From an uncultured Bdellovibrionales bacterium (lineage in GTDB: Bacteria > Patescibacteriota > Minisyncoccia > Moranbacterales > UBA1568), in the NCBI GenBank assembly GCA_964624415.1, contig CAZUWR010000001.1, positions 3,855 through 67,854 of the forward strand: a stretch of 64,000 nt of DNA. The letters run 5' to 3'. Positions within the stretch are counted from its first letter, which is position 1. Each line of letters starts with the position of its first letter. Made by a program: the position numbers and the translations under genes. Shown here in pieces: positions 2,484 to 64,000 of the stretch. Below the pieces are notes generated by a model. It had not been told where the DNA came from, ran no database searches, and saw only the letters and a program-made list of their open reading frames with translations.

Positions 2484-3032
2484 GTGAAAAAATGTGTGAG
2501 AGGAATGCTGATACTTTTGGCATCAGTAAGTTTGATCGGATGTTTTCCGCCGTATGATTTTGAACGCTCGGCCATCGAGAGTTCAAGCCGTTTCGATAAC
2601 AGCTTGATAGTAGATGATTTGGAACGCGAAGCGATGGAGAAGCAAGCTGGTGAAGCGATCATTTATCGCAACGGTGAGTTTGCTTATCAAGTCACACCAT
2701 TGCAAATGCGGTATGACAATCGCACGGGCAAAGTGTGTCGCGATTACCAGACCGATGTCATCTTCCGTGGCGATCAAAAATCCGCAAGGAAAACAGCTTG
2801 CAAGTATAGCGGGCAGTGGTATATCGTCAGTATCGATGGAAGATCCACGATACAGTCACGACCACGGTATGCTGTTGTGCAGAATTGGTATATGAATTAC
2901 GGCTCTCCGGGATTCGGTGTACCGGCATGGGCGCAGGGTTTCGGGTATGTCAGTCCGATGTTCGGCCCCATGTTCGGCGGATATCCCCGTACCGGTTTTG
3001 GAGGCGGGGTATATTTTAACGGACGATGGTGA
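2484..3032 (+). CDS. hypothetical lipoprotein with Gly-rich C-terminus
   Basis: GTG start 5 nt after an AAGGAGG SD; signal peptide ending in a LIGC lipobox; the ORF track extends the frame upstream to 2430 without an SD. Confidence 0.5.
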   Translation: MKKCVRGMLILLASVSLIGCFPPYDFERSAIESSSRFDNSLIVDDLEREAMEKQAGEAIIYRNGEFAYQVTPLQMRYDNRTGKVCRDYQTDVIFRGDQKSARKTACKYSGQWYIVSIDGRSTIQSRPRYAVVQNWYMNYGSPGFGVPAWAQGFGYVSPMFGPMFGGYPRTGFGGGVYFNGRW

Positions 3033-3154
3033 AGTATATGAGGCGTTTGGATGGAGTGATATTTGCACAAGCAAGTACGCTTTCATTCCAAACGCTTTTT
3101 TCTTTGGCAAAAAACACGCTGTCGTGCGCAAACAAAGTCTTCTACCGATATATA

Positions 3155-4546: not shown

Positions 4547-5299
4547 TTAATAGCGAGTGCCTTTTGAACGGAGTTGTTGAGTAAAATAAGCGCGTAATTC
4601 GCCATAGGTTTCGATTGTTTTTGGAAATGTTATCCGCAAACTGCATCCCGGGCAGTGCACTATTTTTGATATACCATTTTCATAGCAAAAAATCAATTCG
4701 GAACCGCAGCCATGATTTTTATGAATCCCTAATACTTTCCCTTTTTTTGGCAGAGGATTCTCATCGCGTGTGTGATCAAATATGCCAGGAAGAAATCGAT
4801 CCGGGGGATTGTTCTTGTCCGGAGGAATTTCCGTCAGACAATCGCCCTCGGATGTGATGCGTATGAGTGGTAACGGTTGCGCACGCAGGATCTCTTCTTG
4901 TGTGCGTGATGCCAACACCTCATTGAGATTTTCTGTGCTGGTTTTTCGGGACACATCTGCCAGGATGCTGAACAGGCAATCCAGCCAACCCGTCATCCAT
5001 GCAGCGTTATCTCCTCTTCCGACACGCAGTATTATTTCATCGGAATACCTTGTTTGTGAAGTAAGAACGCGGAAGGGACAATGCGTGTTCACGGTAGCGT
5101 CCTCATAATCATATCCTCGTATTTCATCCATTTTTCCGACTTCGACATGATTCACATCGAAGCCTGCTGATTGCACGACCTCTAGGAGCAATGCCAGTAC
5201 TTCTTTGGAATAGGTATTCCCCTCTGAGGGACGTGTAAAGAATTTCGCGTAAAATTCTGCGAAACGTTTTGCAATATCGGTAACATTTTGAGTGTTCAT
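4547..5299 (-). CDS. hypothetical protein with C-terminal Cys cluster (HGCG...C...HCPGC)
   Basis: start set at the internal ATG (MNTQNV) preceded by a GGAGGG SD; the track ORF extends to 5476 with no SD; no recognisable family. Confidence 0.45.
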   Translation of the reverse strand: MNTQNVTDIAKRFAEFYAKFFTRPSEGNTYSKEVLALLLEVVQSAGFDVNHVEVGKMDEIRGYDYEDATVNTHCPFRVLTSQTRYSDEIILRVGRGDNAAWMTGWLDCLFSILADVSRKTSTENLNEVLASRTQEEILRAQPLPLIRITSEGDCLTEIPPDKNNPPDRFLPGIFDHTRDENPLPKKGKVLGIHKNHGCGSELIFCYENGISKIVHCPGCSLRITFPKTIETYGELRAYFTQQLRSKGTRY

Positions 5300-7646: not shown

Positions 7647-8207
7647 ATGAATGTATCAAAGACAGCAATAGAAGGATTGCTCATTATCGAACCGAAGGCC
7701 TTTGCGGATGATCGGGGGTTTTTTATGGAAGTATATAATCACGATCGGTATGTGGAGGCAGGTATCACCGAACTGTTTGTGCAGGACAATGTCTCGGTGT
7801 CCAAGAAGGGGACACTGCGCGGACTGCATTATCAGGTGCCTCCGTTCGCTCAAGGTAAGCTGGTGCAGGTATTGCGCGGATCGGTACTCGATGTGGCAGT
7901 GGATATCCGAAGCGGCTCACCGACATTCGGGAAATATGTTGCGGTCGAGCTTTCGGCGGAGAACAAAAAACAGTTCTGGATTCCAGCGGGTTTCGCTCAT
8001 GGTTTTGTCGCTTTGGAAGACGAAACGATTTTCAGTTACAAGTGCACCAATCCGTATTCGCCGGAACATGATCGAGGTATTGTGTGGAGTGATTCGGAAA
8101 TCGGTATACAGTGGCCGTTTTCGGTTTCGGAGCTCTTGATTTCCGAGAAAGATGCCGCGCAGCCAAAGCTTAAGGATATCGCACGTGAATTCGTGCAATC
8201 GATTTGA
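7647..8207 (+). CDS. rfbC: dTDP-4-dehydrorhamnose 3,5-epimerase
   Basis: 186 aa; conserved RmlC cupin motifs (RGLHYQ, FWIPAGFAHGF). Confidence 0.85.
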   Translation: MNVSKTAIEGLLIIEPKAFADDRGFFMEVYNHDRYVEAGITELFVQDNVSVSKKGTLRGLHYQVPPFAQGKLVQVLRGSVLDVAVDIRSGSPTFGKYVAVELSAENKKQFWIPAGFAHGFVALEDETIFSYKCTNPYSPEHDRGIVWSDSEIGIQWPFSVSELLISEKDAAQPKLKDIAREFVQSI

Positions 8208-8255
8208 TTTTTCTCTGCTGTAATCGCTGGGGTATGCATAAGAAAATAGGGGCAA

Positions 8256-8350: not shown

Positions 8351-9331
8351 ATGAAACTTTTAGTCACGGGCGGAGCGGGATTTATCGGGTCCAATTTCAT
8401 CCACTATATCCTCAAGAAATATCCCGAGTACAGCGTGGTCAATCTGGATGCTTTGACGTATGCAGGCAATCCGGAAAACGTGCGGGAGTGGGAAGGTGAC
8501 CCGCGGTATACTTTCGTTAAGGGGGATATTTGCGATGCAGAGCTTGTGGAAAAATTGGTGCAAGGTGTCGATGCTATCGTACACTTTGCTGCCGAGTCGC
8601 ATGTCGATCGCTCTATCTTGGATGCGCATTCATTCGTGCAGACCAATGTGATTGGAACGCAAACGCTTTTGGATGCCGCTCTGCACAATGACAAGAAGCG
8701 TTTTCATCATGTCTCGACCGACGAGGTCTTCGGTGCGCTCAAACCAGAAGATGAGCCGTTTTCAGAGAAGACACCCTATGACCCGCGCAGCCCGTACAGC
8801 GCTTCGAAGGCCGGATCCGATCATCTGGTGCGGGCGTATTTCCACACCCACGGACTACCGGTGACGATTTCCAATTGTTCCAATAATTATGGCCCGTATC
8901 ATTTTCCGGAAAAGCTGATACCACTGGCAATTACTAATCTAATGGAAGGGAAGCAGGTGCCGGTCTATGGCGACGGGATGCAGGTGCGCGATTGGCTTTT
9001 TGTCGAGGATCACTGCCGTGCCATCGATTTGATCGTGCATCAGGGGGCGCTCGGTGAGACCTACTGTGTGGGTGGGGCATCGGAGCGCGCCAATATCGAT
9101 ATCGTGAAGCAGCTGCTCAAGCTTATGGGCAAGGATGAAACGAGTATTGAGTATGTGACCGACCGGCTCGGGCATGATCGGCGCTATGCTATCGATTTTT
9201 CAAAAATCAAAAAAGAACTCGGATGGGAGCCGACCGTGACCCTCGAAGATGGACTCAAGCAGACCGTTGAGTGGTTTACAGAGAACGAAGGCTGGTGGCA
9301 GCGCATCAAGTCGGGGGAGTATAGAAAATAA
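8351..9331 (+). CDS. rfbB: dTDP-glucose 4,6-dehydratase
   Basis: MKLLVTGGAGFIGSNF Rossmann N-terminus; YxxxK catalytic dyad of the SDR family; 326 aa. Confidence 0.9.
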   Translation: MKLLVTGGAGFIGSNFIHYILKKYPEYSVVNLDALTYAGNPENVREWEGDPRYTFVKGDICDAELVEKLVQGVDAIVHFAAESHVDRSILDAHSFVQTNVIGTQTLLDAALHNDKKRFHHVSTDEVFGALKPEDEPFSEKTPYDPRSPYSASKAGSDHLVRAYFHTHGLPVTISNCSNNYGPYHFPEKLIPLAITNLMEGKQVPVYGDGMQVRDWLFVEDHCRAIDLIVHQGALGETYCVGGASERANIDIVKQLLKLMGKDETSIEYVTDRLGHDRRYAIDFSKIKKELGWEPTVTLEDGLKQTVEWFTENEGWWQRIKSGEYRK

Positions 9332-9835: not shown

Positions 9836-10717
9836 ATGATTCAAAAAGTGTTGATTATAGGTGCACAGGGGATGCTCGGACAGGAATTGGTCCGGGTGTT
9901 TTCCGCTGACTTGCGGTATGAGGTGCACGGATGGGACAAAGATGAAATCGATGTGACGGATTTTGTTTCCGCGGAGGAGCAGATTCGCGCGCTCGGCCCG
10001 AGCATTATCCTCAATGCCGTGGCGTATAACGCTGTGGATGCATGCGAGGAAAATGATGAGGAATATGCCAAAGCGATGCTGCTCAATGCTGATGCGCCCA
10101 AGTTCTTGGCAGGCCTGTCCCGGGATATCGGAGCGATATTTGTGCACTATTCGACGGACTATGTTTTTGGCGGCAGTGAGGCGGGAGAAAACAACAAACA
10201 GGGCTTTGATGAAAGTATCGAGCCGATACCGGTGTGTCGGTACGCGGTCAGCAAACGCGAAGGGGAGAAACAAGTGCAGGCAGTGGGCGGAAAGCATTAT
10301 ATCATCCGTCTCTCGAAACTCTTCGGGAAACCAGCCTTGTCCGCAGCGGGTAAAAAGAGCTTCTTTGATGTGATGCTCGTGGCAGGCAAGACGAAGACGC
10401 AGGTCAGTGTGGTGGATGATGAAATGAGTTGTTTTACCTATGCGCCGGATCTGGCTCAAGCAAGCAAAGAACTCGTCGAATCGAGCGATGCGTATGGTGT
10501 GTATCATTTGATCAATGAGTCTCCGGTCACGTGGTTTGAAGGCGTGAAGGAACTGTATAAGCAGGCCGGAATCGCTACCGAGGTCATCCCTGTGACCAGC
10601 GATGCTTTCCCTCGCCCTGCCAAGCGCCCGACTTTTTCGGTGCTGCGCAATACTAAACGCCCACTTCTGCGTTCATATGAAAAAGCTTTGAAAGAGTTCT
10701 TACAGAAAATAGTCTAA
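9836..10717 (+). CDS. rfbD: dTDP-4-dehydrorhamnose reductase
   Basis: 293 aa; VLIIGAQGMLG N-terminus and YAxSK motif typical of RmlD. Confidence 0.85.
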   Translation: MIQKVLIIGAQGMLGQELVRVFSADLRYEVHGWDKDEIDVTDFVSAEEQIRALGPSIILNAVAYNAVDACEENDEEYAKAMLLNADAPKFLAGLSRDIGAIFVHYSTDYVFGGSEAGENNKQGFDESIEPIPVCRYAVSKREGEKQVQAVGGKHYIIRLSKLFGKPALSAAGKKSFFDVMLVAGKTKTQVSVVDDEMSCFTYAPDLAQASKELVESSDAYGVYHLINESPVTWFEGVKELYKQAGIATEVIPVTSDAFPRPAKRPTFSVLRNTKRPLLRSYEKALKEFLQKIV

Positions 10718-41552: not shown

Positions 41553-41609
41553 TTTATAGAATCATAGTGTTTATGGTTTGTTGGTGTTTACACACAAGGA
41601 TATTGTTGT

Positions 41610-41680
41610 TGGGGAGGAAGGGATCGAACCTTCGCATGGGGGCTTCAAAGGCCCCTGCCTTACCGCTTGGCTACTCCCCA
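41610..41680 (-). tRNA. tRNA-Gln (anticodon UUG)
   Basis: 71-nt cloverleaf on the minus strand: acceptor TGGGGAG/CTCCCCA with U1-A72; T arm GAAGG-TTCGATC-CCTTC; anticodon stem GGGGC/GCCCC with loop CUUUGAA; 3-bp D stem as in bacterial tRNA-Gln; CCA not encoded. Confidence 0.8.
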
Positions 41681-57851: not shown

Positions 57852-57880
57852 TTGACAAAATGAGGAGAGGGTGCTATAGT
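57852..57880 (+). promoter_or_regulatory. consensus sigma-70 promoter of the small-ORF island
   Basis: TTGACA, 17 nt, TATAGT. Confidence 0.5.
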
Positions 57881-57939
57881 GAAGGAGCAGTACCCAAAAG
57901 ACAATAATTACATAAAAATCAAAAAACAGGAGAAGTGCT

Positions 57940-58038
57940 ATGAGCACGTTTTTAGAATTAGTATTTCTAGGGGTTATTTTTTTCTTTGTATTGAAGGCGC
58001 ATAAAAATAATACGGCGCCCTTAAATACTGATGAGTAG
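57940..58038 (+). CDS. small hydrophobic peptide (32 aa, one TM helix, charged C-terminus)
   Basis: AGGAG SD 6 nt upstream; MSTFLELVFLGVIFFFVLKAHKNNTAPLNTDE; below the ORF-track cutoff. Confidence 0.35.
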   Translation: MSTFLELVFLGVIFFFVLKAHKNNTAPLNTDE

Positions 58039-58047
58039 GAGAACGAA

Positions 58048-58224
58048 ATGACTGTAAAACAAATACTGGCTAAATTTTCAGCAAAAGAAGAGGGTGATAA
58101 TGGGAATTTTGGACTGGAAGATGCTCAAGAGCACAATGTCCAAGAGCATCAAAAAACTCTTCCCGCATTGCTCTTGCGGGATGCTGAAAATTTCAAAGAT
58201 TACCAGTGGCAACACTTTTTTTAA
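58048..58224 (+). CDS. small acidic protein (58 aa)
   Basis: AGGAGA SD; translationally close-coupled to the 32-aa ORF. Confidence 0.35.
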   Translation: MTVKQILAKFSAKEEGDNGNFGLEDAQEHNVQEHQKTLPALLLRDAENFKDYQWQHFF

Positions 58225-58309
58225 ATAGAGCTAGGCGCCGCGTACTGAACTTCAGTCCGGCGCCAAAAATTTTATTTGACAACTTTCTTAGGAGGAGTAT
58301 ACTTGAAAC

Positions 58310-58382
58310 TAATGAAAAGAAAGCTCAACATTTTAGCAGTCTATACGAAGTGATATCATCACCCCTGTGGGTGATTTTTTTT
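58310..58382 (+). ncRNA. candidate small RNA (about 70 nt) defined by a promoter and an intrinsic terminator
   Basis: TTGACA (58276), 17 nt, ATACTT, then about 50 nt, then hairpin ATCACCC-CTGT-GGGTGAT followed by a T9 run; contains only a 13-codon ORF. Confidence 0.3.
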
Positions 58383-58447
58383 GAGCCGATTTTCGCACTT
58401 GTTGTTTAACAACAGAATAATCAAATATTGAGTAAGGAGAATGTGTT

Positions 58448-58741
58448 ATGAATGATTCTAAAATGAGACAACCATCATTAAACTTTCTGGTAGAATCTCC
58501 AGCTTGTGACCTGATGCCCGATGGTGGTTGGTGTGATGTGCCTTTTCTACGGAGTTTACTCCCTTCAGAGCAAAGATGTAATTGCGCAAAGTACGGAAAG
58601 TGCATTATACGGGAATTGCCAAAAATCGATAATCATTCTATGGTTACGATACTTTTTTATAATCAAGCACAGGGAACCCCTGTTCCTGTTGATAAAATTC
58701 GATCAGCAATCAGTTTATATTGTGAAGCTCACAGTGTTTGA
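58448..58741 (+). CDS. small Cys-rich protein (97 aa)
   Basis: AAGGAG SD; 8 Cys including CNCAKYGKC; no family recognised. Confidence 0.4.
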   Translation: MNDSKMRQPSLNFLVESPACDLMPDGGWCDVPFLRSLLPSEQRCNCAKYGKCIIRELPKIDNHSMVTILFYNQAQGTPVPVDKIRSAISLYCEAHSV

Positions 58742-58752
58742 ATGGCACAATA

Positions 58753-58786
58753 AAAGGTGATGATATAAAATTCATCACCTTTTAGC
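58753..58786. terminator. bidirectional terminator between the Cys-rich ORF and miaA
   Basis: AAAGGTGATGA-TATAAAAT-TCATCACCTTT hairpin with flanking T runs. Confidence 0.55.
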
Positions 58787-58789
58787 TTT

Positions 58790-59779
58790 TTAGAAGAAGA
58801 TCTCTGTTTCCGAGGCAGCCTCTATCCAGTGGATATCAGCGCCCTGTTTTTCCCATCGGCGCAGCCAAGTGCGCTGTCTTTTGGCATAGTGGACGATGTC
58901 GAAGAAAAGTTTTTCTTTCATTGTCGGTTCGTCGATGTTTCCCTGCAAGAAGCGAGCTATCCATCGGTATTCAAGACCGAAGGCCTCCAGTTTTTCCCAT
59001 GCCGCGCCATGCTCGTGGAGGCGCCGCACTTCTTCGATCATGCCCTGATCGAAGCGTTCGTCCAGGCGTTTTCGTATATTCGCATCCAGGATGTCTTTTG
59101 GAGGATTGAACGCGATAATGAAATAGTTGCTTTGATTGATATATTGAGGTTTGGGATGTGTCATTCCGATCGTAGCGGAGGAATCCGAGATCCTTCGACT
59201 ACGCTCAGGATGACATATCATGGGGTTGCTCTGCAGTGAAGGGACTTTTCCAAGTGATTGTACGATTTCCAGAGCCCGGATAAGCCGGATGGGATTGTTT
59301 CTATCGATAGTTAGGGCTCTTTCCGGATCGATGGCTTGCAGTTTTGCAAAGAGTTCTTGGATAGAAAGGTGCGAAAGTTCTTTGCGCAGTATGAGATCGG
59401 GCAAGACCTCCGGGAAGGATTGGTTATCGATGAGCGCCTGCGCCCAAAAAAGCGTACCTCCGCAGAGGATGGGGAGTTTGCCGCGGCTTCGGATGTCTCG
59501 GATGATTGCTTGGGCATCACATTTGAAGTCCGTGACATTGTACTCCTCGTGCGGCTCGCGAATATCGAGGAGGTGATGCTGAGCGAGCGACTGCTCTTCG
59601 GTAGTCACCTTACCCGTCCCGATATCCATTCCGCAGTACACCTGTCGGCTGTCGGCTGAAATAATCTCGCCATCGTATTTGAGGGCCAGTGAAATTGCCA
59701 AAGAAGACTTGCCCGAGGCTGTCGGCCCGACGATGGCAAGGGTTTGTGATCTGTCGAATTTTCTTGACGTATGATTCAT
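58790..59779 (-). CDS. miaA: tRNA dimethylallyltransferase
   Basis: P-loop GPTASGKSS and DSRQVY motif; 329 aa; carries an approximately 20-aa insertion (CHPERSRRISDSSATIGMTHP) encoded by the dispersed repeat. Confidence 0.8.
   Translation of the reverse strand: MNHTSRKFDRSQTLAIVGPTASGKSSLAISLALKYDGEIISADSRQVYCGMDIGTGKVTTEEQSLAQHHLLDIREPHEEYNVTDFKCDAQAIIRDIRSRGKLPILCGGTLFWAQALIDNQSFPEVLPDLILRKELSHLSIQELFAKLQAIDPERALTIDRNNPIRLIRALEIVQSLGKVPSLQSNPMICHPERSRRISDSSATIGMTHPKPQYINQSNYFIIAFNPPKDILDANIRKRLDERFDQGMIEEVRRLHEHGAAWEKLEAFGLEYRWIARFLQGNIDEPTMKEKLFFDIVHYAKRQRTWLRRWEKQGADIHWIEAASETEIFF
59189..59215 (+). repeat. dispersed 27-nt repeat, copy 2 (inside the miaA coding sequence, in frame)
   Basis: identical to 41708..41734; on the miaA strand it reads CHPERSRRI. 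Confidence 0.6.
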
Positions 59780-59806
59780 AGTATGTTAGTATAGGCTATT
59801 CAGAAT

Positions 59807-59873
59807 GGAAATGCAAGCGGTTTTCTGAACGTAGAAAAAGTACTTGCTGAACGGGCTGAAGTTTGGCTCTTTA
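59807..59873 (+). promoter_or_regulatory. conserved structured 5' leader, E1
   Basis: GGAAATGCAAGCGG...; nested stems GCAAG/CTTGC and TTTTCT/AGAAAA; paralogues at 60731 and 61042. Confidence 0.45.
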
Positions 59874-59896
59874 TCAATTGAATACGAGGTAATGAT

Positions 59897-60280
59897 ATGC
59901 ATACTGTAGCGCAAAAATTGGCATTGCTAACAGCCATCGTAACGGTGATAGGAGGAGTTACAGCAAGTCTGTATTATAGGCAAGTATGGATACTACCTTT
60001 GACTGTGTTTGTCATGAGGGGAACAGAGATGCTTCTTCATATTGAAACAGAGATGACATTGATATATTCTTCGGAGGAACTCGGAAAAAGGGTTGCTCGA
60101 TGGATATTTATCTTGACTGTTCTTGCGGCGGTAATCGGTATTTTTGATACCACTACAGCAGGTATAGTCTGTTTTGTAATGATATTTCTCGTCTCATGTA
60201 AACTCGCTCAAACTCTGGCAATCTACATCAAAAAATATGATCAAATTTACGATTTCCACAAGGTTTTTAGTGAGGAATAA
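59897..60280 (+). CDS. hypothetical membrane protein (4 TM)
   Basis: 127-aa ORF with a GAGGT SD. Confidence 0.45.
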   Translation: MHTVAQKLALLTAIVTVIGGVTASLYYRQVWILPLTVFVMRGTEMLLHIETEMTLIYSSEELGKRVARWIFILTVLAAVIGIFDTTTAGIVCFVMIFLVSCKLAQTLAIYIKKYDQIYDFHKVFSEE

Positions 60281-60288
60281 GGAGTAGT

Positions 60289-60591
60289 GTGATGAAGAGA
60301 AAACAAAAAACGAAAACAAAAAAATGCATATCTATCTCCGAGGAGTATTTTCAGGAACTCCTAAACTTTCTTCAAAAATCGTATAAGAACTTACTCGAAT
60401 ACGCGTTTTATAAAGAGGCTGAGATCTTTTTGGGCGCTATAAAAGCCATGAAGAAAGGGTGTTTCGGAAAGGCAAAAAAACTTTTTCAAAGGTTAACTGC
60501 CGATGTCCAAAGAACTCTTAGCGAAGGGTATCAGGAGGATGATTACATGCGATCAGTACGTAATCTTAAGCCCGCGATAGATGAATTGTGA
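60289..60591 (+). CDS. hypothetical basic protein (100 aa)
   Basis: ORF 8 nt after the previous stop. Confidence 0.4.
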   Translation: MMKRKQKTKTKKCISISEEYFQELLNFLQKSYKNLLEYAFYKEAEIFLGAIKAMKKGCFGKAKKLFQRLTADVQRTLSEGYQEDDYMRSVRNLKPAIDEL

Positions 60592-60687
60592 TTTGAAAGA
60601 TGAAGATGTAAAGCCGAAACGTCAATGACGGAGTAGGCTTTTATACTACCCGAAAATGCTTCTTTGAGCCGTATTTGTCAGATATGA

Positions 60688-60716
60688 TTGACAAATGTTG
60701 CGGCGTATGCTATACT
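60688..60716 (+). promoter_or_regulatory. consensus sigma-70 promoter upstream of leader E2
   Basis: TTGACA, 17 nt, TATACT with an extended TGc. Confidence 0.55.
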
Positions 60717-60730
60717 GGGTTTTTCACGTC

Positions 60731-60794
60731 AGCAATGCGGGCAGTTTTCCCAAGACGGAAAAGCGCTTGCGAACTAACCTGAAAACAGGTTTTT
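60731..60794 (+). promoter_or_regulatory. conserved structured 5' leader, E2, with a terminator-like hairpin (candidate attenuator/riboswitch)
   Basis: stems GCGGGC/GCTTGC (with G-U pairs) and TTTTCC/GGAAAA, then CCTG-AAAA-CAGG followed by a T6 run, then a GGAGGA SD. Confidence 0.45.
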
Positions 60795-60819
60795 TGAAAC
60801 TCTTATGGAGGATGCAGCT

Positions 60820-60972
60820 ATGACGCTGTCAACAATACTGATATGGGTAGTTTTCCTTTTTATTGTCTATTTATTTTATCTGGCGATGAAGGGAACGAAA
60901 CCAGTAGGGTGTTCTGTGTGGGTACAAATGAATAAATATGCCCCGCACAAAACCGATACCACGTTCGATTAA
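60820..60972 (+). CDS. small membrane protein (50 aa, one TM helix)
   Basis: MTLSTILIWVVFLFIVYLFYLAMKG...; GGAGGA SD; below the ORF-track cutoff. Confidence 0.35.
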   Translation: MTLSTILIWVVFLFIVYLFYLAMKGTKPVGCSVWVQMNKYAPHKTDTTFD

Positions 60973-61041
60973 AATCAGTAGTCGACGACGGAGGTCTCAT
61001 ATTCTTACATCAAGAAGAGGCCTCCGAAAATTATTCACACC

Positions 61042-61107
61042 GGAAATGCGAGCGGTTTTCCGAAACGGAACAAATGCTTGCCGACCGGGCTGAAGTTTGG
61101 CTCTTTA
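61042..61107 (+). promoter_or_regulatory. conserved structured 5' leader, E3
   Basis: GGAAATGCGAGCGG...; stems GCGAG/CTTGC and TTTTCC/GGAACA; about 85 percent identical to E1. Confidence 0.45.
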
Positions 61108-61123
61108 AAAATTTTACGAGGAT

Positions 61124-61411
61124 ATGATTATGAATGTTGTATTTATGATAGAGTGTATAACACTTTGCGTAATGGGTCATGGACACGGATATGCTATGAA
61201 TTGGCTGGTAATTGAGGATATGACAGAAAATGATTTTAAAGACGAAAATATTCAAGAATGGATTCTATTGAATATTTTCAAAAAAGGAACAATACCAATT
61301 GGCCAGGATATTGTGACCGTGAAAAAATCGATGTTTTCTGATGGGCATGAAGTTGACGGATTCAGTGAATCCAAGAGCTTTAAGGTGAAGTTTTCACTAG
61401 AAAGAGTGTAG
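61124..61411 (+). CDS. hypothetical protein (95 aa)
   Basis: ORF with a GAGGA SD downstream of leader E3. Confidence 0.4.
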   Translation: MIMNVVFMIECITLCVMGHGHGYAMNWLVIEDMTENDFKDENIQEWILLNIFKKGTIPIGQDIVTVKKSMFSDGHEVDGFSESKSFKVKFSLERV

Positions 61412-61476
61412 TCAGCGATAAAGTCGCAAGAGCCTGCTTAAACATAAAAGCAGGCTCTTAAAAATGTGCAAAAAAC

Positions 61477-64000
61477 CTACTCCACACTGGCAACTCCGGC
61501 AATATCCGCGAGTTGTTTTTTTGTATCTTCGGTCGCTTCGATGGTGTGCGGGGTGTGTATGGTGGCGCCCTGGACGCGGACATAGACGGGCGTCTCGCCC
61601 TTGGGGAGACGGGCGAGGGTAGCGGAGACGGTTTCGAGGAGCTGTTTGCTTACAGCGCTGTCTTGGAGAGTGATGGTGAGGCGGAGATTTTTACCGGATC
61701 CCGCATCAAGTACGGGATGACTTAGATGATGTTGTCCGTTGGTTGTTGGTTGTTGATTGTTGACTGTCTGTGGTTCGTTTTTCGCTCGTGTCAAGAGGAC
61801 TCGCTTGAAAGTCTCGACGGACTGCAAATCGACTTTCTCGGCATCCTCGGCGAGTATTTTTGGGACGCCGTCTTCATTGGAAAGTCTGCCCTGCACGATG
61901 ACGAGTTCGTCTTCTATCCACATACCGCCGGTTTTTTCTACAGCGCGCGGGAAGACGAGCACTTCGACGCGCCCGGTCAGGTCTTCGAGGCTGACGAAAA
62001 ACATTTCTTGCTGGCGTTTGGTGTAGGTTTTGCGCACGGTGCTGATGACACCGCCCACTTTGACGCTGATACCGCTCTCTCGCTTTTCCAAATCATGAAT
62101 CGGAATGGTAATCTGATCGAAGTATTCCTTGAAATCGCTGACCGGATGATCGCTGACATAGAGGCCGAGGAGTTCCTTTTCCCACTTGAGCTTTTGTTTT
62201 TTCTCGATAGGTGGCACGTTTTCGAGGCGTAGCTCGGAGGTTTCGATCGGCATGCTTCCGAAGAGGCTGTCGGTGTGAGTTTCTTTTATCTTCTGCAGAT
62301 TGCGGGAGTGTTTGAGGATTTTGTCGATGCTGGCAAGGAGCTGACTGCGCTCGCCGAAAGCATCGAGGGCGCCCACTTTTGAGAGAGCTTCGAGGGATTT
62401 CTTGTTGAGGTCTTTGGTCTGGACACGCTCGACGAAATCGGCGATGGAGCGGAACTTTCCACCGCGCTTGCGCTCTTTGACGATTTCTTCAGCAGCTACT
62501 TTGCCGACGTTTTTGATGGCATTGAGTCCGAAGCGGATACGCTCTTTTCCTTCGGCATCCGGGACAACGGCAAATTCCTCGAAGCTTTCATTGACATCCG
62601 GTGGCAAGACCTCGATGCCCATCTCGCGGCATTCATTGACCTCGATAGCGATGCGATCCGTCGTGTCCTGGTCGGAGGTGAGGAGGGCGGCCATAAAGGA
62701 TGCCGGGTAATGTGCTTTAAGGTAGGCGGTCTGATAGCCGATGAGCGCATAGCAGGCAGCGTGCGAACGGTTGAAACCATATCCGGCGAACGGTTCGATA
62801 AACGCGAAGACTCCCTCGGCTATATCTTTGCTGATGCCTTGCTCACCGCAACGCGCCACGAATTTGATGCGCTGCTCTTGAATGAGCTCGAGGATTTTTT
62901 TGCCCATCGCTTTGCGAAGCACATCGGCTTCGCCGAGGGTGAAGCCGGCCAGGTCGCGGGCGATTTGCATCACTTGCTCCTGATAGACGGCCACGCCATA
63001 GGTAGTGGCGAGTATCGGTTCAAGTTTCGGGTGCAGGTACTTCACGGTTTTGCGTCCGTGTTTGCCATCGATAAAATCAGGGATCCAGTCCATCGGTCCC
63101 GGACGGTAGAGGGCGACCATAGCGATGATGTCTTCGAGGACGGTCGGCTTAAGCTGGCGCAGGTAGCGCTTCATACCATTGCTTTCCAGCTGGAAGACGC
63201 CGGTCGTGTGGGCCTTTTGGAGTAGCTCATAGGTTTTTTCGTCATCGATAGGGAGGCGATCCATAATGTCGGAAATGGAAGCGGTCTTCGGGTCAAGGCC
63301 GATACGGATGATGAGTTCGTCGAGTTTGCCCAATGCGCGGATGATGCGGATGGTGTTTTGCATGATGGTGAGGTTTTTGAGTCCCAAAAAGTCCATCTTG
63401 AGCAAGCCGATCTTTTCCACGGCGCTGAATTTGGTGGAGGAAGCATACTGTGTCACGGTGCCTTCTCGTGTGCCGGAGATTTTTTGGATGGGGGTGTATT
63501 CGGTGACCGGGTCTTTGGTGATCACCACGCCGCAGGCATGCATCGAGGCATGGCGCGCGAGACCTTCGAGGTTTTTGGCCACGTCGATGAGCTTGCGCGC
63601 TTCCGGATCCGCATCGTAGAGTTTTTTGAAATCCACCGCTTCTTCGAGCGCTTTTTTCATCGTGGAAAACATCGGGATGAGTTTGGCGACTTGATCGCAG
63701 AGCGCATACGAATAGCCCAGTGCACGACCCGTGTCGCGGATAGCCGCGCGCGCCGCCATTGTTCCGAAGGTGATGATCTGTGCGACGTGATCGTGGCCGT
63801 ATTTTTCGCGGACATAGTTGAGCACATCATCGCGACGATCATCGGCGAAGTCCATATCGACATCGGGCATCGAGATACGTTCCGGATTGAGGAATCGCTC
63901 GAAGAGGAGATCGTATTCGATTGGATCCATGTTGGTGATACCGGTGAGGTAGGCGACGAAACTTCCCGCCGCCGAGCCGCGTCCCGGCCCCACCATGATC
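61477..64000 (-). CDS. dnaE: DNA polymerase III alpha subunit, C-terminal part (5' end lies beyond the window)
   Basis: PHP domain (MPDVDMDFADDRRDDV), polymerase core and OB-fold regions; the ORF runs to the window edge. Confidence 0.85.
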   Translation of the reverse strand, partial: IMVGPGRGSAAGSFVAYLTGITNMDPIEYDLLFERFLNPERISMPDVDMDFADDRRDDVLNYVREKYGHDHVAQIITFGTMAARAAIRDTGRALGYSYALCDQVAKLIPMFSTMKKALEEAVDFKKLYDADPEARKLIDVAKNLEGLARHASMHACGVVITKDPVTEYTPIQKISGTREGTVTQYASSTKFSAVEKIGLLKMDFLGLKNLTIMQNTIRIIRALGKLDELIIRIGLDPKTASISDIMDRLPIDDEKTYELLQKAHTTGVFQLESNGMKRYLRQLKPTVLEDIIAMVALYRPGPMDWIPDFIDGKHGRKTVKYLHPKLEPILATTYGVAVYQEQVMQIARDLAGFTLGEADVLRKAMGKKILELIQEQRIKFVARCGEQGISKDIAEGVFAFIEPFAGYGFNRSHAACYALIGYQTAYLKAHYPASFMAALLTSDQDTTDRIAIEVNECREMGIEVLPPDVNESFEEFAVVPDAEGKERIRFGLNAIKNVGKVAAEEIVKERKRGGKFRSIADFVERVQTKDLNKKSLEALSKVGALDAFGERSQLLASIDKILKHSRNLQKIKETHTDSLFGSMPIETSELRLENVPPIEKKQKLKWEKELLGLYVSDHPVSDFKEYFDQITIPIHDLEKRESGISVKVGGVISTVRKTYTKRQQEMFFVSLEDLTGRVEVLVFPRAVEKTGGMWIEDELVIVQGRLSNEDGVPKILAEDAEKVDLQSVETFKRVLLTRAKNEPQTVNNQQPTTNGQHHLSHPVLDAGSGKNLRLTITLQDSAVSKQLLETVSATLARLPKGETPVYVRVQGATIHTPHTIEATEDTKKQLADIAGVASVE

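Follow-up and report, generated by a model that had tools for sequence, protein, structure and literature searches.

The interval between miaA and dnaE in the 64-kb window (the whole stretch of 64,000 nucleotides (nt) of contig CAZUWR010000001.1 analyzed here) contains three copies, E1, E2 and E3, of an apparently undescribed, lineage-restricted, cis-acting leader RNA. Each copy is a rod-shaped element of about 70 nt that lies on the + strand ahead of a small open reading frame (ORF). In all, 16 distinct copies of the element are present in about ten related Moranbacteria contigs, and all are in the miaA-dnaE island. The leaders are structured RNA under selection for structure. In the majority of copies one strand of the rod is at the same time the 5′ arm of a short terminator-like hairpin, termed T, and we tentatively propose that the leader can switch between two folds. 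To our knowledge, gene regulation in bacteria of the candidate phyla radiation (CPR) is almost unknown, and we are aware of no structured regulatory RNA that has been described for this group in particular. A full-text literature search on Patescibacteria, structured RNA and riboswitches returned nothing on structured RNAs in Patescibacteria.

The element consists of an outer stem (P1), an internal loop, an inner stem (P2) and a variable cap (P3). P1 is about 10 base pairs (bp) long and has a conserved UUCAG.../...CUGAA base; its 5′ strand, UAUUCAGnnnnG, opens the element and its 3′ strand reads CnnnnCUGAA. The internal loop between P1 and P2 is conserved, 4x3, asymmetric and purine-rich, with AAAU on the 5′ side and YRA on the 3′ side (i.e. 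CGA, CAA, UGA or GAA). P2 is GCAAGC/GCUUGC, and P3 and its loop are free in sequence and length. An earlier note on this DNA had placed the three segments correctly on the + strand, and its P2 and P3 stems and loops are read here in the same way. The element is however larger than described there. P1 begins at about 59799, 60723 and 61034 in the three copies and pairs with the CTGAA of what the note had called a further conserved block, of which the P1 3′ strand is a part. A kink-turn or loop-E assignment of the internal loop was considered by eye only; the loop does not fit the kink-turn pattern and neither assignment is made.

The E1 rod is at 59797–59866 (+ strand) and is supported by a covariance model score of 72.8 bits, by its fold and by covariation. 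Its P1 pairs 59799–59803 with 59856–59860 and 59806–07 with 59852–53, the internal loop has AAAU at 59809–12 facing UGAA at 59848–51, P2 (GCAAG/CTTGC) is at 59813–17/59843–47 and P3 (TTTTCT/AGAAAA) is at 59821–27/59832–38. The E2 rod at 60721–60789 (+) has a score of 68.2 bits and likewise folds. Its P1 is weak (60723–26/60780–83), P2 (GCGGGC/GCTTGC) is at 60737–42/60765–70 and P3 (TTTTCC/GGAAAA) is at 60745–50/60757–62. The E3 rod at 61032–61100 (+) has the highest score of the three, 82.4 bits, and is also found by folding. Here P1 is at 61034–37/61091–94 plus 61040–43/61085–88, the internal loop shows AAAU at 61044–47 and CGA at 61082–84, P2 (GCGAG(CG)/(TG)CTTGC) is at 61048–54/61075–81 and P3 (TTTTCC/GGAACA, with one mismatch) is at 61058–62/61066–70. 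The P3 loops are 5–6 nt long.

The differences between E1, E2 and E3 had been described as compensatory. In the three copies alone the evidence for structure is weak: 2 of 18 pairs are compensatory and single-sequence folds of 100 nt give z-scores of −0.7 to −1.6. The real support comes from the relatives, i.e. contigs from ten of the relatives found through MiaA (labels L018 etc.). In an alignment of 16 copies, 85.6% of pair cells are paired, as against 29.6–55.7% when the partners are slid by 1–3 columns. Changes on both sides of a pair are seen at 12 of 24 pairs and in 30 cells, compared with 14.0 ± 3.3 in shuffles, and the covariation score of 0.319 (0.249 shuffled) was reached by 0 of 500 shuffles. 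RNAalifold independently yields the same rod, with 9 compensated pairs. Thus the compensatory changes that had been proposed are borne out in the larger alignment. Variants of P1 keep their pairing, e.g. UUCAGG/CCUGAA in L022a and L022c, CCAG/CUGG in L022b and L018, and UCAAAUU/AAUUUGA in L020. In L022a the P2/P3 part is a perfect helix of 14 bp, AGGUGUUUUCUU/AAGAAAACACCU, and in L022c it is G+C-rich (UGCC/GGCG).

The fold has a strand. There are 49 G·U pairs versus 14 A·C, pairing is 85% when the copies are read as sense RNA and 74% when read as antisense, and covariance model scores are 34–83 bits in the forward direction and 13–24 bits on the reverse strand. The excess of G·U over A·C together with the low reverse scores therefore assigns the fold to the sense RNA, and not to the DNA or to an antisense transcript. 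A promoter scan flagged no antisense promoter opposite the leaders.

miaA is at 58790–59779 (minus strand) and shows the Pfam IPPT domain; the 3′ end of dnaE is found from 61477 onward, also on the minus strand. The best named relatives of MiaA are from Candidatus Moranbacteria (Patescibacteria/CPR) and the nearest are 60–74% identical. The order dnaE - [small genes] - miaA - small genes - gatB is kept where MiaA is at least 60% identical, in those contigs that reach far enough upstream of miaA. The dnaE-miaA content is different in every contig and consists of 1–4 small ORFs that are all directed away from miaA. Such contigs have 1–3 copies of the element, one of which is always immediately beside miaA. 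L029 is the only relative without the element; its MiaA is 59% identical and its neighborhood and synteny are different.

A covariance model was trained on nine copies and then run on the window and on the relatives' contigs, a search that the earlier note had proposed. It recovered seven copies on which it had not been trained, at 34–60 bits (L024, L025, L026a/b, L041, L053 and L054). Covariance models R1 and R2 showed no additional copies in the 64-kb window or in the 6–10-kb flanks of the relatives. The 17-nt degenerate core of the element, AATGCRRGCRGTTTTCY, has three occurrences without mismatch and none elsewhere in the window. E1–E3 align with a mean column identity of 78% over about 120 nt, from the promoter to the start codon.

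Searches of public sequences gave little more. The pattern AATGCRRGCRGTTTTCY...CTTGC has 16 matches in public genome contigs, all of which are in coding sequences or have unrelated flanks and are near the chance expectation; in retrospect this pattern was too strict on P3. A pattern scan of metagenome contigs gave 23 stretches with a single genuine copy, L041, which is from the same lineage and the same island. None of 25 stretches from viral contigs is genuine, and BLASTN against phage records gave no match. A comparison with Rfam, also proposed earlier, shows no family match: with Rfam 15 at the gathering threshold the whole window displays only a tRNA at 41609–41680, and at E-values up to 10 the region 59700–61500 shows chance matches to snoRNA and sRNA families only, none of which overlaps E1–E3 in sense.

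Several relatives have leaders of unusual form. A degenerate leader is beside miaA in L020 (9925–9984, minus strand) and in L021 (2880–2940, minus strand). It retains P1 only (UCAGACU/AGUCUGA), with a short unstructured stretch enclosed by P1, no P2/P3 and no ORF after it, and looks like a decayed copy. In L025 (540–760, minus strand) a complete leader precedes a remnant ORF of 13 codons. Beyond this come another P2-like stem, another P1 3′ strand, T and a Shine-Dalgarno (SD) sequence before a 106 amino acid (aa) gene. Due to the second P1 3′ strand copy, the P1 5′ strand has two possible 3′ partners. This hybrid looks like a recombination or deletion product of two leaders. Two leaders of L022, L022a and L022c (9915–9987 and 8726–8792, minus strand), agree exactly over the 42 nt of promoter plus P1 5′ strand and again in the P1 3′ strand, but their P2/P3 are wholly different, which points to gene conversion or to selection for a genome-specific P1. 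At L054 2200–2330 (minus strand) there is a second cassette promoter, TTGATT-17-TATGAT, with a divergent rod behind it. This rod has P1 UUCAAG/CUUGAA but lacks the GAAAUGCAAG core, and the covariance models did not detect it. The leader family may thus be broader than the models detect.

The position of the element relative to the promoter is fixed. TTGACA-N17-TAnnAT with TG (extended −10) precedes 15 of the 16 copies, and the distance from the −10 hexamer to the first paired U of P1 is exactly 6 nt in all 15. This promoter type has 10 matches in the window where 1.1 are expected, and is clearly used by the organism. The promoter of unit 1 is TTGACG-17-TAGTAT with TG at 59764–59792 (+) and was found by the promoter scan. 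The TTGACA-17-TATACT promoter of unit 2 had been recognized earlier and is confirmed by the scan at 60688–60716 (+), matching at 11 of 12 positions and with TG. A promoter-like region had also been described ahead of each of the three leaders; this is correct for E1 and E2 but no promoter is recognizable at E3. A hairpin without a U run, GGAGGTCTC...GAGGCCTCC (60990–61025, +), is located after the 50-aa gene of unit 2 and directly upstream of E3, where it occupies the expected site of the E3 promoter; it is kept in L020. E3 is probably co-transcribed with the 50-aa gene, or else its promoter is not recognized.

Given the invariant 6-nt spacing, the predicted start leaves 0–2 unpaired nt ahead of P1. 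The rod is thus predicted to be at the 5′ end of the transcript, with transcription starting about 6–7 nt after the extended −10 so that the RNA would open almost directly with P1.

In 12 of the 16 copies the P1 3′ strand doubles as the 5′ arm of T, and a run of U3–U7 comes after T. Due to this shared strand the rod and T are mutually exclusive. T of E1 is GGGCUGA/UUGGCUC then UUU at 59853–59872 (+), and an overlapping stem at 59846–59867 was flagged by the terminator scan. T of E2 is AACCUG-aaaa-CAGGUU in a U6 run at 60776–60795 (+); this is the terminator-like hairpin CCTGAAAACAGG plus T6 that had been noticed before, and it has the clearest intrinsic-terminator shape of the three. T of E3 is GGGCUGA/UUGGCUC then UUUA at 61087–61107 (+). 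The block shared by E1 and E3 is likewise present as had been reported. L019 displays GGGCUGA/UUGGCUC then UUU, L026a displays GACCUGA/UCAGGUU then U5, and variants elsewhere are GGCC/GGCC, GGCC/GGCU and AGCCU/AGGCU. The two arms change together, with compensatory forms GGGCU/GGCUC, GGCC/GGCC, AGCCU/AGGCU and ACCUGA/UCAGGU. The 3′ arm of T resembles the P1 5′ strand, a likeness that would be expected of two sequences competing for one partner.

When the first 13 nt are barred from pairing, all leaders that have T refold to P2/P3 plus T. The two folds are close in predicted energy in E1 (rod −16.4, T-fold −15.6 kcal/mol; gap 0.8), E2 (−22.0 and −21.9; gap 0.1) and L026a (−24.9 and −24.5; gap 0.4); the gap in E3 is 4.9 kcal/mol. 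The earlier note had seen in E2 an aptamer followed by an expression platform. An attenuator-like arrangement is indeed present, but P2/P3 is the inner part of the rod and the strand that would compete with the terminator is that of P1.

The best explanation, which we hold tentatively and with somewhat less than even confidence, is that E1–E3 are lineage-restricted cis-acting 5′ leaders in which a switch between the rod and T is set by a trans-acting factor. In the rod state the 5′ end would be paired and T blocked, giving read-through to the SD and the ORF and a protected mRNA 5′ end. In the alternative state P2/P3 and T would form, giving premature termination and an exposed 5′ end. The factor would pick the fold by binding the internal loop and the base of P2, and a protein would be a likelier effector than a small molecule. 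The protective part of the model has precedent, as decay enzymes that depend on the 5′ end require unpaired 5′ nucleotides and 5′-terminal stem-loops stabilize mRNAs (review PMC3997798). By analogy, the logic of the leader would be that of a terminator/antiterminator combined with a 5′-terminal stabilizing stem-loop.

Under such a switch the small orphan proteins of the miaA-dnaE island, membrane-bound or secreted, would be regulated together. The leader would then mark a set of co-regulated, strain-specific orphan proteins at a fixed hot spot of a CPR genome. Such episymbionts depend on cell-surface functions, in which these proteins could plausibly take part. Should the two-fold switch prove real, the leader would offer a direct handle for finding a regulator or signal in organisms that are so far beyond genetic manipulation. 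The leader also illustrates how orphan genes can acquire a ready-made expression module.

Among the closest known parallels are the attenuators with ribonucleic antiterminator (RAT) sites of the BglG/LicT type and those of PyrR. In RAT/PyrR-type leaders a factor that stabilizes the antiterminator hairpin prevents termination. As in these leaders, a hairpin just past the promoter has a conserved asymmetric loop and its 3′ side overlaps the 5′ arm of the terminator. The overlap of a hairpin with the 5′ arm of a terminator-like stem, which is expected of a protein-dependent antiterminator RNA, is seen here. The element however shows no sequence resemblance to RAT or PyrR sites, the rod is long and predicted to be 5′-terminal, T is very weak in most copies and the genes that follow are orphans rather than sugar or pyrimidine genes.

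Several observations weigh against a switch. T is weak in most copies (4–5 bp, U3) and four of the 16 (L018, L022b, L020_2 and L025a) have no convincing T. In L022a, L022c, L026b and L054 the rod is 7–13 kcal/mol more stable than the T-fold, and T would therefore never form there without an active disruptor. No candidate regulator was found, and the Pfam lists within 10 kb in L019, L020 and L022 show no CAT/PRD, PyrR or ANTAR domain. The failure of the promoter scan at E3 means that this rod may not be 5′-terminal. All copies are from one narrow lineage and are not independent, so that the shuffle statistics overstate significance. Finally, part of the conserved GAAATGCAAG in copies adjacent to miaA could double as a weak −35 sequence for a leaderless miaA on the other strand.

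The last point touches the start of miaA itself. Its start codon (CAT, 59777–59779) is within the spacer of the unit 1 promoter, and at 59764–59815 on the minus strand a sequence TTGCAT-17-TATACT ends 8 nt before the miaA ATG. The promoter scan did not flag this sequence, whose −35 matches at 3 of 6 positions. miaA may be expressed as a leaderless mRNA from a back-to-back promoter that overlaps the cassette promoter.

The nearest rival to the switch is that the rod is a passive 5′-terminal stabilizer or insulator with no switching, T being incidental or a leaky pause site. The rod would then shield the mRNA 5′ end and make expression from the module uniform. We regard this as unlikely, though it is the strongest of the alternatives. 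It accounts readily for the invariant spacing between the −10 and P1, for the copies in which the rod is far more stable than T and for the four that have no T at all, and stem-loops at the 5′ end are known stabilizers (PMC3997798). As with the stabilizing stem-loops of ompA and papA in E. coli and of aprE and ermC in B. subtilis, the hairpin is at the 5′ end, here beginning within about 0–2 nt of the predicted start, and this placement blocks the entry of RppH, RNase E and RNase J (PMC3997798). Those are however simple hairpins with no conserved loop, no competing terminator and no repeated module. A passive rod also leaves unexplained why the AAAU/YRA loop and the base of P2 are conserved when P3 is free, why the complementarity between T and the P1 3′ strand is maintained by compensatory changes, and why the two folds are nearly equal in energy in E1, E2 and L026a.

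The rod may instead sense a metabolite or ion. Here the internal loop and P2 would be an aptamer whose ligand stabilizes P1 and prevents T, i.e. an ON switch, which the earlier note had offered as one of its options (a riboswitch or attenuator). The attenuator-like arrangement stands, but nothing is specific to a metabolite riboswitch and we consider this improbable. The resemblance is one of architecture. In ON riboswitches such as the pbuE adenine riboswitch a P1 strand is shared with the terminator arm and P1 competes with the terminator. Rod-like candidates such as nhaA-I/Li+, NMT1/xanthine and folE/THF-II have one conserved internal loop and in part membrane-protein genes downstream, and the genes behind the present leaders are enriched in small membrane proteins. 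The P1-P2-P3 rod, with a conserved internal loop inside covarying stems, has the form of a conserved aptamer, and the predicted terminator excludes P1 in 12 of 16 copies, although it is weak in most and absent in four. Against this, no Rfam family matches even at E-values up to 10, the element is confined to one island of one lineage (the public scans added only L041), and its conserved core is very small. The orphan genes also have no shared or metabolic function such as the genes of a riboswitch regulon are expected to have. In a related reading hypervariable surface proteins may be governed by a riboswitch or regulon restricted to CPR bacteria, with the rod as its candidate aptamer.

A different class of explanation is at the level of DNA, where the modules or an attC-like hairpin would be recombination sites at the miaA-dnaE hot spot. 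Integron attC arrays share with this locus the unrelated, co-oriented orphan ORFs, the structured repeats of about 60–70 nt and the strain-variable hot spot. The island content differs in every relative between syntenic flanks, E3 begins exactly at P1 without a promoter, a terminator module is common to the cassettes, and the L025 hybrid (duplicated leader 3′ half), the P1-only remnant of L020 and the L022a/L022c pair (same promoter and P1, different P2/P3) are in keeping with this. Even the layout of the rod, i.e. stem, unpaired spacer, stem and variable cap, is as in attC. Junction function is nevertheless very unlikely. The G·U bias points to sense-strand RNA, the register to promoter and SD is fixed, and the elements are 5′ of the ORFs and not 3′. 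An integron proper is rejected: the ends TATTCAG ... CTGAAR do not match the attC core-site consensus RYYYAAC/GTTRRRY, and no gene annotated with an integrase domain occurs within 10 kb in L019, L020 and L022 (not all proteins of the window were scanned). A further reading, which we consider improbable, is that the promoter-leader and terminator modules form an integrase-free cassette platform, in which the leader both activates newly acquired orphan envelope genes and serves as the junction for swapping cassettes between strains. The start of E3 at P1 and the leaders of L025, L020 and L022a/L022c would fit this too.

As unlikely as a DNA junction is a trans-acting small RNA of about 75–90 nt (rod plus T with a U tail), the ORF being expressed by read-through only. 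E2 and L026a do have a proper short terminator right behind the rod, and a strong promoter is immediately upstream. However, rod and T overlap, and a single molecule cannot form both in full. In most copies T is weak or absent, and SD and ORF follow every copy at a fixed short distance. Still less credence is due to a functionless relic left by recent segmental duplication: promoter and leader were indeed duplicated together, but identity is uneven (conservation is seen in P1a, the internal loop and the P2 base, and P3 and the loops vary with compensation) and the element is kept across lineages with 60–74% MiaA identity whose cargo ORFs cannot be aligned. The least credible of all, a short upstream ORF (uORF) or leader peptide that starts at the AUG of GAAAUGC and controls the fold, is rejected, as neither its length nor its frame is conserved. 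Of 15 copies checked, 13 have this AUG at the equivalent position, and the UGA of CUGAA is the stop of several uORFs. However, two copies lack the AUG, the length varies from 5 to 25 codons (8 in L018 versus 16 in its near-identical ortholog L022b), and GGA is just 1 nt upstream, so that there is no SD with workable spacing. Indel lengths are not divisible by three, and it is base pairs rather than codons that the substitutions preserve. With further copies in hand, non-uniform identity and no conserved coding in the region, none of the findings that the earlier note had said would speak against a structured leader was obtained.

The cargo of the leaders is as follows. Unit 1 has an SD (GAGG) at 59886–89 (+), a 127-aa ORF at 59897–60280 (+) with 3–4 transmembrane (TM) segments, and a second ORF of 99–100 aa at 60289/60292–60591 (+) that is lysine-rich and helical. 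Unit 2 (60807–60972, +) has an SD (GGAGG) at 60807–11 and a 50-aa peptide with a single TM segment (ATG at 60820). Unit 3 (61118–61411, +) has an SD (GAGG) at 61118–21 and a 93-aa ORF (ATG at 61130); the chain length is 95 aa if the start is at 61124. The spacing to the SD is 8 nt at the ATG 61130, and the 93-aa form is thus the more likely one as far as the sequence can tell. This protein had been described as a 95-aa soluble protein, which is not upheld, as it also displays an N-terminal hydrophobic segment at residues 1–17. All three first cistrons carry N-terminal hydrophobic segments. Of the cargo proteins only that of E2 (50 aa, one TM) would fit the small hydrophobic toxin (under about 60 aa) of a type I toxin-antitoxin locus, the others having lengths of 93–179 aa.

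The cargo proteins of the window show no Pfam, PHROG or PADLOC family. The 95-aa protein sequence returned only itself among 5.8 billion protein clusters, and a search of 1.84 billion representatives turned up no relative of the 127-aa protein. Behind the equivalent leader in L020/L021 there is an ortholog of the 50-aa peptide (48% identity). The downstream genes had been called unrelated to each other, and the three first-cistron ORFs do lack BLASTP similarity to one another, although E1 drives two ORFs (127 and 99–100 aa) and not one. In the relatives five cargo proteins are distant paralogs (23–45% identity) that form one single-TM family, and whole-unit duplication has therefore contributed to the array.

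Identity between copies is concentrated in the regulatory part. Mean pairwise identity is 0.61 in the promoter (0.50 shuffled), 0.65 in the leader (0.48 shuffled), 0.54 in the platform past the leader (0.48 shuffled) and 0.50 in the first 90 nt of the ORF, the same as in shuffles (0.50). The paralogy takes in the promoter and about 45 nt upstream, and the similarity weakens after T. Judged in this way, the repeated unit is a promoter-leader expression module. The earlier argument against whole-gene duplication thus holds for the first-cistron ORFs of the window, but the promoter is duplicated along with the leader and several of the relatives' cargo genes are paralogous. Between E3 and L019 the leader identity is 91%, with unrelated cargo and a MiaA identity of only 69%. 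That the leader is still recognizable after the cargo has diverged or been replaced speaks for purifying selection, or for the module having been exchanged repeatedly.

The terminator module AAAGCCgaaacgtcaatgacggagtaGGCTTTTAT is at 60610–60645 (+) and is the only copy in the window. It is common to the cassette ends of the relatives, with the consensus AAAAGCC...GGCUUUUA, also written AAAAGCCgaaacgtcaatgacggagtaGGCTTTTA(t/a)A(c/a)TAC. Further copies are at L019 ~5125–5165, L026 ~4745–4790, L024 ~3030–3075 and at three sites in L022, where three variants of the module keep the stem by compensatory changes. A hairpin read directly from the sequence, GAGCCTGCTT...AAGCAGGCTC then TTAAAAA (61430–61463), is located between the last cassette and the convergent dnaE stop codon (61477).

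In L018 (37–860, minus strand) the cargo ORF after the leader is cut after 15 codons and is followed by a 258-aa ORF which, by eye, resembles the C-terminal nuclease part of the phage terminase large subunit. This arrangement may represent a prophage insertion at the hot spot, or the 3.7-kb contig may be chimeric.

At 57852–58790 (+) of the window a second strong extended −10 promoter, TTGACAaaatgaggagagggTGcTATAGT, is found just past gatB. It is followed by about 900 nt with only small ORFs (32–97 aa) and no leader copy. Small unannotated genes are also present at the post-gatB place in the relatives, and this stretch may be another variable small-gene region.

The miaA gene of the window contains a palindromic repeat resembling a miniature inverted-repeat transposable element (MITE), tgtcattccgatcgtagcggaggaatc...gatccttcgactacgctcaggatgaca, at 59150–59225 (minus strand). 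The repeat is inserted in frame and adds about 28 residues (…ICHPERSRRISDSSATIGMTHP…) to MiaA. Due to this insertion the chain length of the window MiaA is 329 aa, compared with 288–301 aa in the relatives. Repeats of the same family are found at L019 ~5010–5100 and L022 ~8170–8250; in the relatives such copies are in the intergenic region beside dnaE.

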